The notes beneath the pieces are model-generated. The model searched no databases. It saw only the letters and a program-made list of their open reading frames with translations, and was not told the origin of the DNA. 24,992 nt of DNA from a virus (Duplodnaviria > Caudoviricetes): the IMG/VR virus record IMGVR_UViG_3300045902_000392, positions 1-24,992 of that record. The stretch is one strand, 5' to 3'. Shown here one piece after another: positions 316 to 16,118 of this stretch (position 1 is its first letter; every line of letters starts with the position of its first letter). Made by a program: the position numbers and the translations under genes.

Positions 316-1356
316 ATGAAGGCTGGTTCCGCCACCGCACCCTACACAGATGCCGTTTCTGCAATTCGACACATCGAAAATGCAACGACGGCATCTTTTC
401 TCTTTGGTGCTGACCCTGAAAAAACATACCGGATATTGGCACAATTGGTCCACCCGGACAAATTGGCGACGCAACCCGCCGCGATGCAAAAACGGGGAAA
501 TGATGCATTCGCCAAACTCAGTCAAATGTACGCGGCACTCAACGGCAAGACCGCACCAGTCGCGCCCGTTGTCTTCGGAAAGTGGATCGTCGAAAATCCC
601 ATCACCAGCGGAGACATCGCAGACCTTTACCAGATCACGGCCAGCACCCACAAACGCGCCGTCCTGAAGATCGCCCGATCCCACGGCGACAACGATCTGA
701 TGGACCGGGAAATCGCCGCTCTCAAGACACTGCAAAGTGACACCCGCTCCGACAAATTCAAGCACTACATTCCCCAAGCCATCGACAGCTTCAAAGCATC
801 CAATCGCCGCGCGGTCGTTCTCAGTATGGCTGAAGCGGAACTCCGGGAAGGCGGATTCGAACCGATGGTGTCGCTCGAACAGATCACATCGATCAAAGGG
901 AAGCTGGACATGCGGCATGTTGTCTGGATGACAAACCGGCTCCTGTCGGCTTTAGGATTCGTCCACAACAACGGAATCGTTCATGGTGCCATTGTGCCGC
1001 CACACCTGATGTACGGGCCGCTCTCACACACTTTAATGCTGGTAGATTGGTGCTATTCTATTGATGTGACGGCACCGACACACATTCCAGCTATCGTAAA
1101 GAACTACAAAGCGTGGTACCCACGGGAAGTATTGCGAAAAGAAAAACCGACTCCCGCGACCGACATTTTCATGTGGGCCATGATGGTACGGAACACGGCG
1201 GAAACCATTCCAACCCGGTTCAAAGGGTTGCTTGATTGGTGTTTGGCCGATTCTGCAAAAACACGTCCACAAAACGCTTGGGACGTACAAGATAAATGGG
1301 GTAAATTGGCACAAGAAGAATTCAGAAAGCCACGTTACCTCAAACTCACTCTCTAA
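316..1356 (+). CDS. J-domain-like (HPD) plus Ser/Thr kinase-like protein
   Basis: YR.LAQLVHPDK J-domain motif; kinase subdomains VLKIA, E, HNNGIVHGAIVPPH, LVDW, YPREV, TDIF, RP. Confidence 0.8.
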   Translation: MKAGSATAPYTDAVSAIRHIENATTASFLFGADPEKTYRILAQLVHPDKLATQPAAMQKRGNDAFAKLSQMYAALNGKTAPVAPVVFGKWIVENPITSGDIADLYQITASTHKRAVLKIARSHGDNDLMDREIAALKTLQSDTRSDKFKHYIPQAIDSFKASNRRAVVLSMAEAELREGGFEPMVSLEQITSIKGKLDMRHVVWMTNRLLSALGFVHNNGIVHGAIVPPHLMYGPLSHTLMLVDWCYSIDVTAPTHIPAIVKNYKAWYPREVLRKEKPTPATDIFMWAMMVRNTAETIPTRFKGLLDWCLADSAKTRPQNAWDVQDKWGKLAQEEFRKPRYLKLTL

Positions 1357-1377
1357 CCAACAAGGAAAATCAAACAT

Positions 1378-2382
1378 ATGGGCGGAACATCATTCTCCCG
1401 CGACGATTACGATGCACGCGAAGACTACCGTAGCAGCACCGGCACAACGGCATTCACTTACGATGCCGATGTGCGGGCCGGAAAAGCCATCGGCGTACAC
1501 GATCAAATGAACCCCTTCGGGGTGAAGTATCGCGAATCCCGCGACTCCCCGGAACACCCGATCACCATCCCTATTGGCGTGTCGATGGATCTGACCGGCT
1601 CCATGTCCACGGTGCCGAAGATTTTCCAGAAGGCCCTTGCGAAGTTGATGGGTCACTTTCTCGAAGACAAGGCCAGCGGCAAGCGCTACCTTGGCGAAGG
1701 ATACCCGGCCATCTGTATCGCGGGGCACGACGACTACGCGGCGATGGGCGGCGTGCAAGGCACCGTTCAGGTGGGTCAGTTTGAATCCGGCCTTGAAATC
1801 GACGACGATCTTGGGCGGCTGTGGTTCACTGGCAATGGCGGCGGCGGCGAACCCCGTGAAAGCTACGAACTGATGCTATACTTCTTCGCCCGGCACACGG
1901 CAACTGACCATTGGGAGAAGCGCGGTCGCAAAGGCTTCCTGTTCCTCTTCGGGGATGAAAAGGCTTACGCCCCGGTGAAAGCCGAACAAGTCCGGGCGCT
2001 CTTCGGCGACCAAATCGACAAGGACATTCCGATTAAAGACATTGTGCGGGAATGCTCCGAACGCTGGCACATTTTCTATGTACAGCCAAACATGACTTCC
2101 CACTGGCAGGAAGAACGCATCCTCAATTTCTGGCGCGAAACCATCAACCCGGAACACGTTCTCTTGCTGGACGACCCGAACAAGATTTGCGAACTCATCG
2201 TCTCTACGGTCGCGCTGTTCGAAGAGAACGCGGATCTGGCTGACCTGACCGCCGATGGTATCGCCACCGGGCTGGACAAGGCTCTTGTGCCGCTCTCCCG
2301 CAAGGTTGGCGACATCAGTAAGTACGATGCGTCCGGTCTTCCGGCGACAACTTCGACCAGCGGTGGTACCGAACGCCTGTGA
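1378..2382 (+). CDS. VWA-domain protein
   Basis: MIDAS-like DLTGSM, GNGGGGE..ESYEL, FLFGDE; AAGGA RBS upstream. Confidence 0.8.
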   Translation: MGGTSFSRDDYDAREDYRSSTGTTAFTYDADVRAGKAIGVHDQMNPFGVKYRESRDSPEHPITIPIGVSMDLTGSMSTVPKIFQKALAKLMGHFLEDKASGKRYLGEGYPAICIAGHDDYAAMGGVQGTVQVGQFESGLEIDDDLGRLWFTGNGGGGEPRESYELMLYFFARHTATDHWEKRGRKGFLFLFGDEKAYAPVKAEQVRALFGDQIDKDIPIKDIVRECSERWHIFYVQPNMTSHWQEERILNFWRETINPEHVLLLDDPNKICELIVSTVALFEENADLADLTADGIATGLDKALVPLSRKVGDISKYDASGLPATTSTSGGTERL

Positions 2383-3656
2383 TTCCACACGCACACATTG
2401 TAGCCGGGCTGACCTTCGGCGACGAAGGCAAGGGAACGTCGGTGGACTACCTTGCCCGGCTACATGGTGCGAATCTTGTTGTACGATACAACGGCGGGCC
2501 GCAATGCGCTCACAATGTCGTATTGCCTGACGGACGCCACCATACGTTCGCTCAGTTCGGGTCCGCCTATTTTGTGGTCGGGGTGAAGACCTACCTGTCC
2601 CGTCACATGCTTGTAGAACCATTCGCCTTACTCAATGAGGCCAAGACTCTACAGTCGGTGAACGGCGATAATCCTTTCGACAGGATCATCATTGATGAGG
2701 ACTGTCTAGTCATCACTCCGTTCCACTGGCTCATGAATCGTTGCCGGGAATCCCTTCGCGGTGATAATCGGCACGGTTCATGCGGCCACGGCGTCGGAGA
2801 AGCCCGCGCCGATCTATTGTCCGGCAAAACATCCCTCTTCGTCCGCGATCTCAAAAACCCCGCAATCACCGAAACCAAACTACAGTTGATCCGTAGCGAA
2901 AAAATTGATGCAATCCGCCGCTACGACATCGATCCAGAAACTCTTGACAATCGATCCGTCGAGGCCATCTACAACGAAAACGTCCGCGCGCTGTGCCACA
3001 TCTACCGGGACTTCCGCTCCCGTTTCGAGTTTGGCACCACCGACCGGCTGAAAGAAATGCTCACCAAGTCGGTGTCGATCTTCGAAGGGGCACAAGGCGT
3101 CCTTCTGGACGAACGGTATGGGTTTGCTCCCTACTACACATGGACCGATACAACCTTCGGTAACGCCCATGAACTTCTGAACGACACCGGCGTCGAATCC
3201 ACACGTATCGGTGTGTTGCGTACCATCTTGACCCGCCACGGTGCCGGGCCGTTCCCTACCGAATCAGAACAGGTCCGCTATGACGGCGACCACAATACAA
3301 CGAACGAATGGCAGGGACGCTTCCGTTTCGGACACATGGACATGCTGATGCTGAAATATGCTATGCGCGCCGCCGGGCCGGTCGATTCACTCTTCCTGAC
3401 CCATCTGGACAAGATCCCCGGTATGATGACGCGGTACTGTGTGTCCTATCAAGACATGGACGCTATTCCCTTTGGTGTGTCTACGAATCGGCTCATGAAC
3501 GCGGAACCGAAACAATACGACTACACCAAAAACATAACGCGCACCCTAGAGGATCATCTAGGAGTGCGCGTCGGGTATACTTCGTCTGGTCCGACCTATC
3601 AGGAGAAGACTAATCTTCTCCCATCAATGTTCCAATCCGCAAAACCTCTGCTTTAA
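2379..3656 (+). CDS. purA: Divergent adenylosuccinate synthetase (PurA-like)
   Basis: FGDEGKG, RYNGG, FEGAQG.LLD..YG..PY.T, TRHGAGPFPTE, LTHLD, SGP; GTGA overlap with the VWA gene. Confidence 0.85.
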   Translation: MIPHAHIVAGLTFGDEGKGTSVDYLARLHGANLVVRYNGGPQCAHNVVLPDGRHHTFAQFGSAYFVVGVKTYLSRHMLVEPFALLNEAKTLQSVNGDNPFDRIIIDEDCLVITPFHWLMNRCRESLRGDNRHGSCGHGVGEARADLLSGKTSLFVRDLKNPAITETKLQLIRSEKIDAIRRYDIDPETLDNRSVEAIYNENVRALCHIYRDFRSRFEFGTTDRLKEMLTKSVSIFEGAQGVLLDERYGFAPYYTWTDTTFGNAHELLNDTGVESTRIGVLRTILTRHGAGPFPTESEQVRYDGDHNTTNEWQGRFRFGHMDMLMLKYAMRAAGPVDSLFLTHLDKIPGMMTRYCVSYQDMDAIPFGVSTNRLMNAEPKQYDYTKNITRTLEDHLGVRVGYTSSGPTYQEKTNLLPSMFQSAKPLL

Positions 3657-8006: not shown

Positions 8007-8143
8007 GGGCCAGCAAATTGATCGGCCAAGGAATCTAGTCCGCTGACCTACCACTGGTCAACACCACCCACCAAAGGATGATGACGGGAATCGAACCCGC
8101 GCATGGCGGTTTGGGGCGATAACCTTGATCCTACGGCTGGCCC
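8007..8143 (-). ncRNA. YrlA-like Y RNA with circularly permuted tRNA body (Trp CCA-like loop)
   Basis: Terminal helix GGGCCAGC/GCTGGCCC, GGTTATC, T arm GCGGG-TTCGATT-CCCGT, looped acceptor CATCATCC/GGGTGGTG, then D arm GACC-AGTGGTA-GGTC; TGGTATGAT just upstream. Confidence 0.75.
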
Positions 8144-8182: not shown

Positions 8183-8779
8183 ATGAAGGGCTTTCACCAG
8201 TTTCTCAAGGAATCCGTAGCCGACCATTCCACGGAGCACGAACTACCTATTCTGTTGGCGGACTTGCACGTGGTATCGATCAAGGTTCACAACTTCCACT
8301 GGAATGTGCGCGGTCCCTTCTTCGGCCCGCTTCACAAGCTGTTCGATGACATCTATGGTCACCTGAACGAACACATCGATGTGGTGGCCGAACGCATGCG
8401 TGCGCTTCGACTGGTCGCGCCCGGCTCCATGCAAGAGTTTCTGGACCTTGCTACGATCCAAGAAACCCCCGGCCAACTACAACCGGCAAAGAACATGCTC
8501 TTGGATCTTCACACCGATCTAATCGATCTCTCCGACCGGCTCAACACAATCATGAATGATGTGAACGACGAAGGCACCAAGAACATGATCGCCGATATGA
8601 TCGAATCCATCGACAAGGATGCTTGGTTCGTTCGCTCCCACGTCGCAACCGACGAAGAGTTGGAAGACAATGAACGGGAACCTGAACCGGAAGAAGAGCC
8701 TGAAGAGGACGATGACGCCGCCGATGATGAAGAGGCGGATGAGGAAGAAGACACTGACGAAGACGAAGAAGAGGAATGA
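8183..8779 (+). CDS. dps: Dps/ferritin-like DNA-protection protein with acidic tail
   Basis: HNFHWNVRGPFF..LH.LFD, D.VAERMRAL, DEGT, DK.AWFVRS. Confidence 0.92.
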   Translation: MKGFHQFLKESVADHSTEHELPILLADLHVVSIKVHNFHWNVRGPFFGPLHKLFDDIYGHLNEHIDVVAERMRALRLVAPGSMQEFLDLATIQETPGQLQPAKNMLLDLHTDLIDLSDRLNTIMNDVNDEGTKNMIADMIESIDKDAWFVRSHVATDEELEDNEREPEPEEEPEEDDDAADDEEADEEEDTDEDEEEE

Positions 8780-12139: not shown

Positions 12140-12214
12140 TGGCTCTCCCGGCAGGACTCGAACCTGCGACTATTCGATTAACAGTCGAACGCTCTACCAC
12201 TGAGCTACGGGAGA
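12140..12214 (-). tRNA. tRNA-Asn(GTT)
   Basis: TTCGA-CTGTTAA-TCGAA; CCA. Confidence 0.93.
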
Positions 12215-13941: not shown

Positions 13942-14068
13942 TGGTCGGGAAGGTTGGATTCGAACCAACGACAACGCGCTTATGATGCGATAACCTTCAT
14001 CAGTCGGCTGTCTCCAGCAATTTGGCGACGAAGACCTTTACGTGCTCTATCCACTGAGCTACTTCCCG
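13942..14068 (-). ncRNA. tRNA(CAT) with ~50-nt Y-RNA-like module inserted in the anticodon stem
   Basis: Normal acceptor, D and T arms plus CCA; insert CTTCGTCGCCAAATTGCTG-GAGA-CAGCCGACTGATGAAGGTTAT; removing it gives CGCGC-ATCATAA-GCGCG. Confidence 0.8.
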
Positions 14069-14237: not shown

Positions 14238-14366
14238 TGGTGGACCGGGTTGGATTCGAACCAACGACCTACGGCTTAATAGGCGATAACCTTCATCAGT
14301 CGGCTGTCACCAGCAATTTGGGCGACGAAGACTTTTTACGTTGCTCTGCCACTGAGCTACCGATCC
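14238..14366 (-). ncRNA. tRNA(ATT) with the same Y-RNA-like insert
   Basis: Near-identical insert with GTGA tetraloop; removing it gives ACGGC-CTATTAA-GCCGT; CCA. Confidence 0.8.
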
Positions 14367-14369
14367 ATA

Positions 14370-14445
14370 GTGAACAGCAAGTTGTTCGGCGAACGGGTTT
14401 TTGTCAATTAACAGTTGAGATAACCATCCACCTATCGGCTGTCAC
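14370..14445 (-). ncRNA. Minimal Y-like RNA presenting only an Asn(GTT) anticodon stem-loop
   Basis: GTGACAGC-C-GA...GGTTATC-TCAA-CTGTTAA-TTGA...TT-GCTGTTCAC. Confidence 0.7.
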
Positions 14446-14452
14446 TGAAACT

Positions 14453-14653: not shown

Positions 14654-14661
14654 ATTTGAAA

Positions 14662-14803
14662 GGAAGCGGCAAGCAAGGTATCGGCGACGGAGATTTTAGG
14701 CGTCCTACCATTAGACGACGCGCTCCGAAGAACGCGATGGGATTCGAACCCACATCTCCCCTTTTGCAGAGGGATAACCATCACCTATCGGCTTGCCACT
14801 TCC
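14662..14803 (-). ncRNA. YrlA-like Y RNA with circularly permuted tRNA-Cys(GCA) body
   Basis: GGAAGTGGCAAGC-C-GA/TT-GCTTGCCGCTTCC; GGTTATC; CCT-CTGCAAA-AGG; T arm; acceptor CGCGTTC-TTCG-GAGCGCG; then D arm. Confidence 0.8.
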
Positions 14804-14931
14804 TTTGTTCTCCCCAACTGAATCCATCTTACCACGATGGACCGGGGAGTCATTGTTCCTAAACAGGCTCTTCAATTGTCAATGATCTGTGCGCCGTTGC
14901 CGATTACGCGGGCGGCGCGGACTGCAAAACT

Positions 14932-15008: not shown

Positions 15009-15100
15009 ATATGAATGGACCGGGCCAACCGCTTGTTAGGCGGCGACCGATCCGGCAACTCGTTTCTCGAACAAAATCAATTCCATTTCCTTTTTCCTTT

Positions 15101-15184: not shown

Positions 15185-15274
15185 TGGCTCCGGGAGTAGG
15201 GTTCGAACCTACATATGGGCATAAAGCCACGCCGCATTAACAGTGCGGTGCCTTACCAGTTAGGCGATCCCGGA
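15185..15274 (-). tRNA. tRNA-Asn(GTT) with long variable arm
   Basis: CCGCA-CTGTTAA-TGCGG; 19-nt variable region; GCCA. Confidence 0.85.
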
Positions 15275-15715: not shown

Positions 15716-15806
15716 GGTAAGCAATTGGATTGGAACGGGTCAACCACCGAAGTGGTCTTGGGATCGAACCAAGTTATACCAGATAACCGTTACCGGTCGG
15801 CTTACC
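15716..15806 (-). ncRNA. Y-like RNA carrying only a T arm and looped acceptor minihelix
   Basis: GGTAAGC-C-GA...GGTTATC...CTTGG-TTCGATC-CCAAG-ACCAC-TTCG-GTGGT...TT-GCTTACC. Confidence 0.7.
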
Positions 15807-16057
15807 TTGAAAATTGTTTAGGGGAAACTTTCCTACTTCAGTGTTCCTGTCTGTGTCACTCATCGCCGGGTCGCTACTCCGGTTCTGCTATACAGGACTG
15901 TTTCGGGGAGAGGGGATTAACCGCGCTTGACGCGCCCGTTAAATCGGCTACCGCACCAATTGAAGGTGACGAAGCGATTGCCACGGGCACACCGGGCGGT
16001 GTTTCCGTTTCGTTTATTGGCTACGTTCGTCATTTGAATGCGATGTCCTTCTGATTC

Positions 16058-16118
16058 TATTTATACATGCCGCTGAGCGGATGTCAACACTTTTTCGAAC
16101 TTTTTCTCAACTTTTTTT
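16058..16118 (-). promoter_or_regulatory. Composite promoter heading the RNA cluster: A-tract UP element, TTGACA, TATAAATA
   Basis: AAAAAAAG..GAAAAAG..GAAAAAGTG-TTGACA-N16-TATAAATA. Confidence 0.7.

Follow-up and report, generated by a model that had tools for sequence, protein, structure and literature searches.

The stretch analysed here, referred to below as the window, comprises the 24,992 nt of IMG/VR record IMGVR_UViG_3300045902_000392 (Caudoviricetes; record 15% complete) and carries on its minus strand a tRNA cluster with 21 ARAGORN calls, together with genes for a T4-type RNase H, a B12 ribonucleotide reductase, and others among the 24 ORFs scanned with Pfam. A protein-kinase-domain gene, a gene for a 334-aa protein, and an adenylosuccinate-synthetase-like gene follow one another at 316-3656 on the plus strand, and a ferritin-like (Dps-type) gene lies at 8183-8779. 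The window also contains six RNAs built on a Y-type handle: five matches to the handle pattern, where 0.03 were expected, and a sixth copy, with GCCGT, at 8118. The features discussed are listed here.

14370..14445, minus strand: predicted short Y-type RNA gene, handle plus anticodon stem-loop (fold and relatives)
14438..14445, minus strand: outer stem, 5' strand, 8 bp (fold)
14435..14439, minus strand: GCCGA motif in the internal loop, equivalent to GNCGAAN(0-1)G, the presumed Ro60-binding motif (PMC4201824)
14424..14432, minus strand: inner 9-bp helix, 5' strand, with partner 14388-14396 (fold)
14419..14425, minus strand: GGUUAUC motif, which includes the YUAY of YrlA (motif match)
14404..14418, minus strand: anticodon stem-loop UCAA-CUGUUAA-UUGA, 4-bp stem (14415-14418 / 14404-14407), loop CUGUUAA (14408-14414), anticodon GUU (Asn) (fold)
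14388..14396, minus strand: inner helix, 3' strand (fold)
14370..14380, minus strand: outer stem, 3' strand, UU-GCU then GUUCAC (fold)
14238..14366, minus strand: tRNA-order handle RNA with CCA end, loop CUAUUAA (in homologue L074 too)
13942..14068, minus strand: second tRNA-order handle RNA, loop AUCAUAA (CAU)
14660..14805, minus strand: YrlA-type RNA with handle, Cys-GCA arm (CUGCAAA), T arm, closed acceptor, and D arm (Rfam YrlA 25.4 bits, E 0.02)
15716..15806, minus strand: handle RNA that has a T arm and a closed acceptor but lacks an anticodon hairpin
8007..8143, minus strand: second YrlA-type RNA, no anticodon-like loop (homologue L254)
12140..12214, minus strand: tRNA-Asn(GUU), loop identical to that of the short RNA (ARAGORN, Rfam)
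15185..15274, minus strand: tRNA-Asn(GUU), loop identical to that of the short RNA (ARAGORN, Rfam)
16058..16088, minus strand: promoter-like site preceding the cluster, TTGACA-N17-TATAAATA, seen by eye and unchanged in L127; TATAAATA is the T4 late promoter consensus

The short RNA at 14370-14445, hereafter the element, folded on the minus strand with a minimum free energy of -19.4 kcal/mol (z = -1.70; 9 of 200 shuffles were equally stable), which beats shuffled sequence only modestly, so that the case rests on comparison; the plus-strand reading folded at chance level (z = -0.57) and was rejected. In the 8-bp terminal stem, AGCCGA faces UUGCU in the arrangement of a Ro60-type bulged helix, and, as at the Ro60 site in PMC4201824, these strands would be expected to pair around a bulged C, in a putative register. 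The motif GCCGAUAG, near the 5' end, is one letter from the GNCGAAN(0-1)G consensus, and the YUAY motif, within GGUUAUC, is followed by a 4-bp hairpin at the position of the YrlA 'V' hairpin. Set against a tRNA anticodon arm, the loop reproduces Y32-U33-NNN-R37 exactly, whereas the stem has 4 bp and a C-C mismatch at the fifth pair; 13 of 17 letters are as in the arm of the tRNA-Asn at 12140, the best match among 26 distinct Asn arms. Neither the fold nor a T-arm scan, which found no T-arm motif, revealed a T arm, D arm, or closed acceptor stem at 14370-14445, and no tRNA cloverleaf with acceptor stem and CCA was present or called by ARAGORN. An earlier note on this DNA had described a 76-nt element lacking D, T, and acceptor arms whose handle is topped by TCAA-CTGTTAA-TTGA, leaving the strand unstated, and this anatomy is borne out on the minus strand. 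Its statement that the loop equals those of both Asn(GTT) tRNAs is also correct (12178 and 15237); however, CTGTTAA occurs at four sites in the window (these two, the element, and 3653) with 1.4 expected, so the 7-mer match alone is weak evidence. At its gathering score and E-value thresholds, Rfam placed 14370-14445 in no family; the best YrlA score near the element was 17.6 bits, out of register, compared with a cut-off of 69, and a YrlA match at 14319-14407 (E 3.8), joining the 3' half of the element to the D arm of the next RNA, was rejected, as it disrupts both folds.

The hairpin is unchanged in two loci that are ∼90% identical to the window over the cluster (L074 and L077), in L099, and in contigs of runs X12, X14, X19, and X20; two runs labelled RNA-Seq are probably DNA, consist of contigs, and have no bearing on transcription. 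Differences among these close relatives sit in the linkers, apart from two inner-helix changes (14388 and 14392) that preserve pairing, and the similarity of the X12, X14, and X19 contigs ends at 14446-14452, the 5' edge of the element. All of the roughly nine variable places fall outside the 15-nt hairpin, which has a chance of ∼0.14 by hand estimate and is not significant alone. From this conservation and pairing at the DNA level, the element is almost certainly a Y-family gene for a discrete, structured RNA. In run X19, two abutting contigs of like depth join the 3' half of the element to another 5' half, which agrees with the Cys-GCA YrlA at 39 of 43 letters; these contigs suggest a relative with a head swap or deletion at the place of the element.

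The six handle RNAs of the window comprise two YrlA-type RNAs, one with a T arm and no anticodon hairpin, two in tRNA order, and the single short element. Four of the six carry, directly after GGUUAUC, a 7-nt loop whose second letter is U and whose last two are A, and the anticodons of these loops are GCA, GUU, AUU, and CAU. The RNA at 14238-14366, which starts 3 nt past the 3' end of the element, begins with the acceptor and D arms, continues with the handle, which is capped by a GNRA loop, and ends with the hairpin and the T arm. This tRNA order, with an encoded CCA and the handle between the D and anticodon arms, recurs at 13942-14068 and in L109, L114, L115, and L110, the last without any anticodon hairpin; these RNAs are a genomic counterpart of the RNase P-cut YrlA of Mycobacterium smegmatis, and possibly an ancestral form of Y RNA. 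A second tRNA-Cys called by ARAGORN (14727-14804, minus strand) was discounted, being the front part of the YrlA-type RNA at 14660-14805 with its Cys-GCA 'V' arm. In L130 (genome G004), the homologue of that RNA is missing eight bases of the inner helix of the handle and has altered T and acceptor stems, with the Cys loop intact. Two further anticodon-like 7-nt loops lie between tRNA genes on the minus strand without a Y handle (CUAACAA, 5 bp, 15033-15039; GUGGUAA, 8 bp, 14829-14835), and both hairpins are kept in L127 and L130, the latter loop with pairing-preserving stem changes. Some 240 structured bases (15810-16050, minus strand; no Rfam family) separate the promoter-like site from the first handle RNA and are possibly another RNA gene; the block that holds them is 93% identical in L074. 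A promoter consensus scan of the window found nothing and missed the site at 16058-16088, which could drive the tRNA cluster. A genome related to the window (G001) has eight handle motif matches across three tRNA clusters, and a second short handle RNA of that genome (L250, G001:209610), in a different cluster, has no clear anticodon loop.

To recruit relatives, seven viral scans, one metagenome scan, and one genome scan were run with the handle letters only, the loop being excluded; one of the nine covered 39 of 64 parts. The first viral scan returned 102 matches, mostly due to chance, of which four were real. In total, 466 motif candidates were reduced to 196 by a two-helix filter, which lost the real-looking L183, L190, and L220 and retained some doubtful members, then to 187 without a T arm, and to 107 clusters at 85% identity. 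The eighth inner pair, which lay outside the selection, was paired in 75 of 92 unbulged members compared with 38.8 when partners were shuffled. Changes on both sides of the outer stem occurred in 16-19 of 35 aligned members, which had been selected for pairing. Owing to misalignment of the inner helix in a MAFFT alignment, RNAalifold recovered the outer stem and only three inner pairs from it, and inner pairs were therefore counted by anchoring.

Among the 106 other members, a YU-NNN-R-N loop on a stem of 3 bp or more was present in 29 compared with 3.1 in shuffled heads (maximum 11 in 2000 shuffles), a YU-NNN-AA loop in 17 compared with 0.7, and a loop equal to that of one of the 389 tRNA genes in the fetched loci in 15 compared with 0.7. 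When stems were kept and the loop alone was shuffled, 27 of 67 showed a tRNA-type loop compared with 6.6, and flanking DNA gave 7.8% and 1.3% for the YU-NNN-R-N and YU-NNN-AA patterns, respectively. The p values of these loop tests are too small because members are related, and once the variable letters had been clustered by single linkage at 60%, the remaining 77 clusters gave 15.2 tRNA-type loops compared with 2.4. A clean tRNA-type loop is lacking in 77 of the 106 relatives.

The 30 anticodons, including that of the element, were UUU (six), GCA (five), UUG (three), GUU, GCU, UCU, and CAA (two each), and eight singles, with Lys, Cys, Gln, Ser, Arg, Leu, and Asn represented, and this spectrum was more concentrated than that of the tRNA genes found in those loci (p = 0.003). 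The Asn loop sits on other stems in L366, L373, and the YrlA-type L175, and L355 has a Ser loop on the TCAA/TTGA stem of the element. Gln, Thr, Lys, and Ser heads all occur within a single handle lineage (L133, L301, L306, L327, L356, and L387). A tRNA with the same anticodon was present in the fetched flank, which was short, for one of 42 matching heads. The constraint on the loop that the earlier note had proposed to check among homologues is found for a tRNA-like loop, at ∼9 to 24 times the rate of shuffled heads and with stems rebuilt and anticodons swapped, but not for Asn specifically. At the level of the family rather than from this copy alone, the head is probably kept by selection as a tRNA mimic and is not debris.

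Two genomes that are ∼90% identical to the window over the cluster (G001 and G002) each have a TROVE frame of 560 codons, a full-length Ro60 whose match to Deinococcus radiodurans Rsr spans the entire protein (E 6e-107) and which matches vertebrate Ro60 as well; in G001 it lies ∼58 kb from the element on the opposite strand, and no Ro60 gene was found in the window record or in G004 (26% complete). TROVE genes were present in 33 of 45 viral records with short handle RNAs, a subset of the clusters to which the TROVE search was confined without the metagenome loci, compared with 5 of 44 control records, which were drawn from presumed chance hits. One of the five TROVE-positive controls (L134) is a true member, and none of the other four had a clear short handle RNA in the corresponding position. 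The association held in near-complete records with short handle RNAs (13 of 14) and, by hand count, in records <100 kb (16 of 26 members compared with 2 of 36 controls); 23 of the 33 TROVE genes lie ≤3 kb from the short handle RNA, also by hand count. The spacing seen for YrlA (Ro60 within 4 kb, same strand) is absent for the element, and as to distance it holds for the same 23 of the 33 family records. Handle motifs also occur in three of five records of cultured phages searched: a short handle RNA adjoins the Ro gene in Streptomyces phage Jollison (Cys-GCA loop) and in mycobacteriophage Alice (TCAA/TTGA stem, loop CUAUCAC), and Atu_ph07 has two, far from its Ro gene. A blastn search of the element with its neighbour against cultured phages gave matches to tRNA parts only, none covering >80% of the query. 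TROVE is known from some jumbo phages (PMC7824862). Taken with the motif, this co-occurrence makes it very probable that the handle of the element is bound by phage Ro60.

The YrlA RNAs known from bacteria and from mycobacteriophages (RF02553; Chen et al., 2014) share with the element GNCGA near the 5' end, YUAY, the terminal stem, a hairpin directly after YUAY, and, judged from its relatives G001 and G002, a Ro60 gene in the genome, and are defined by GNCGAAN(0-1)G, YUAY, the 'V' hairpin, and the T, acceptor, and D arms (PMC4201824). The element differs in having no T, acceptor, or D arm, although in YrlA no other conserved blocks are as long; it is not recognised by the Rfam model, and in its nearest relative Ro60 lies ∼58 kb away. 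In the published YrlA alignment, inspected by eye, the 'V' hairpin of five of the seven rows has a 3-bp stem and a 7-nt loop with AA at its end, and in three of these rows it is fully canonical (two with Arg UCU, one with Met CAU); the M. smegmatis row is anticodon-like, the Salmonella row lacks the hairpin, and the available part of that paper does not term it an anticodon arm (PMC4201824). On these five rows, the 'V' arm reads as an anticodon-like arm, and since it is the same hairpin, the element may be described as a pared-down YrlA without T, acceptor, and D arms, outside RF02553 but Y-RNA-like in its predicted workings. In being short, built mostly as a single long hairpin, and situated beside a tRNA-like Y RNA, it resembles YrlB (S. 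Typhimurium and M. smegmatis) and Yrn2 (D. radiodurans) (PMC4201824). No description of a handle-plus-anticodon RNA was found in the literature searched, although subscription papers, which lay outside its scope, may bear on novelty.

Our preferred reading, offered tentatively, is that the element is a bait, held by Ro60, for host defence nucleases that attack tRNA; having no acceptor end, it cannot decode. The short Y RNA would be cut from the transcript of the tRNA cluster, and because the tRNA-order sibling starts 3 nt downstream, RNase P trimming of the sibling would free the 3' end of the element. The phage Ro60 ring would then hold the RNA by its handle, and the head, a tRNA-Asn(GUU) anticodon stem-loop, would attract host enzymes that attack anticodon arms, such that the particle may bind, compete with, or sense a defence nuclease. 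This is favoured because heads swap on a fixed handle, the commonest anticodons overlap known targets, and such enzymes act on isolated stem-loops: AriB cuts Lys, Thr, and Asn tRNAs, including tRNA-Asn(GUU) (PMC12409363), colicin E5 targets tRNA-Asn(GUU) and cuts minihelices (PMC1635277), PrrC cuts 17-mer stem-loops (PMC3014915), and Cas13b6 cuts isolated stem-loops (PMC13692257). YrlA has been proposed as a competitive inhibitor (PMC7790460), and a Ro60-like protein of phage Bas63, gp130, which may lie outside the Ro60 group considered here, counters the Ppl defence (PMC11482910). The T5 tRNAs that oppose PARIS, retron-Eco7, and PrrC share the battlefield and, in Lys UUU and Asn GUU, some anticodons with the Y heads (PMC12409363, PMC11555353, PMC10264068). 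These are whole tRNAs that restore translation, often with resistant changes, unlike the unchargeable element with its wild-type loop; phage tRNAs are described as evading nucleases (PMC10264068, PMC11555353), with competition for nucleases raised as a possibility (PMC12409363). Weighing against a simple decoy are the two ordinary phage Asn tRNAs with the same wild-type loop, the many degenerate heads, and the absence of RtcB from G001-G003 (an Rnl2-type ligase is present in G002 and G003 and absent from G001; PF09511 matched nowhere, controls included, and is uninformative). The lack of a Ro60 gene in the window record and its remoteness from the element in G001 also count against this reading. 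A bait would further have to compete with the whole host tRNA pool, and PrrC reads base modifications and other tRNA parts beyond the loop (PMC3014915). The suggestion of the earlier note that the element is a decoy or guide for such enzymes is hence plausible in its first half, while guiding finds no support.

The element could instead be a relic, a YrlA now without T, acceptor, and D arms, whose short hairpin only stabilises or gates Ro60, as YrlB or Yrn2 might, the loop having no role and being either ancestral or newly acquired by recombination with tRNA genes nearby. This reading stays live because the hairpin descends from the YrlA 'V' arm, anticodon-like in most published rows, and an ancestral hairpin needs no new function to explain its presence; the many members without a clean loop, the closeness of the element's arm to the neighbouring tRNA-Asn, and the non-significant conservation among close strains all fit it. 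On the other hand, 7-nt YU-NNN-R loops persist where helices and linkers have diverged beyond alignment, stems are rebuilt, often from the handle's own UAUC, and the anticodon spectrum is skewed, such that a relic, in either form, is considered unlikely, if still a serious contender. That the hairpin arose by chance in a spacer is largely refuted already: the modest fold z and the weakness of the 7-mer match by itself would allow it, but the handle motif, the sharp edge of conservation, the 107-cluster family, and the TROVE link leave it with hardly any credence.

Tethering is the demonstrated role of one bacterial Y RNA, Yrn1, which links Rsr to PNPase (PMC4201824), and an equally unlikely reading makes the element an adaptor of this kind, tethering Ro60 to a housekeeping partner that reads anticodon arms, be it a modification enzyme, a synthetase, or the ribosome, and redirecting or protecting that partner. 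Several handle RNAs with different heads per genome, as with the eight motif matches of G001, fit a set of adaptors. So do 13 of 30 anticodons ending in U and 9 of 30 in A, the classes that are modified at position 37; however, Ser and Leu anticodons also occur (7 of 30), whose synthetases are not known to read the anticodon, and swapping heads on one handle suits conflict better than a fixed partner. Alternatively, and very improbably, the loop would act as a tripwire: a host tRNA nuclease would cut it, the RNA would be destroyed or opened, and Ro60 would be freed or an end exposed, by which the phage would sense the defence, although we know of no effector downstream of freed Ro60 here. Bound Y RNA does inhibit Rsr in rRNA maturation in D. 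radiodurans (PMC4201824), and for the Salmonella rsr-yrlBA-rtcBA operon the ends of cleaved tRNAs serve as a signal (PMC7790460), but Salmonella YrlA is reported not to be cleaved in vivo (PMC7790460), though its row in the published alignment lacks the hairpin.

The role of bacterial and phage Ro60 and Y RNAs is a long-open question, with a role demonstrated in one or two species only, and a handle with the anticodon arm alone isolates the part that selection seems to watch. If the bait reading holds, the short Y RNA links Ro60 to the conflict over tRNA cleavage. A wider proposal, possible but somewhat doubtful, is a modular counter-defence in which one Ro60 ring takes interchangeable mini Y RNAs, their heads matched to host tRNA nucleases and the 'V' arm, an overlooked anticodon arm, being the working end of this branch of Y RNAs. 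The idea is testable now because cultured phages that grow on harmless laboratory hosts (Jollison and Alice) carry such RNAs beside the Ro gene. If true, phages would possess a non-protein, reprogrammable library of baits, and its anticodon spectrum would reveal the tRNA nucleases that they meet, including unknown ones.
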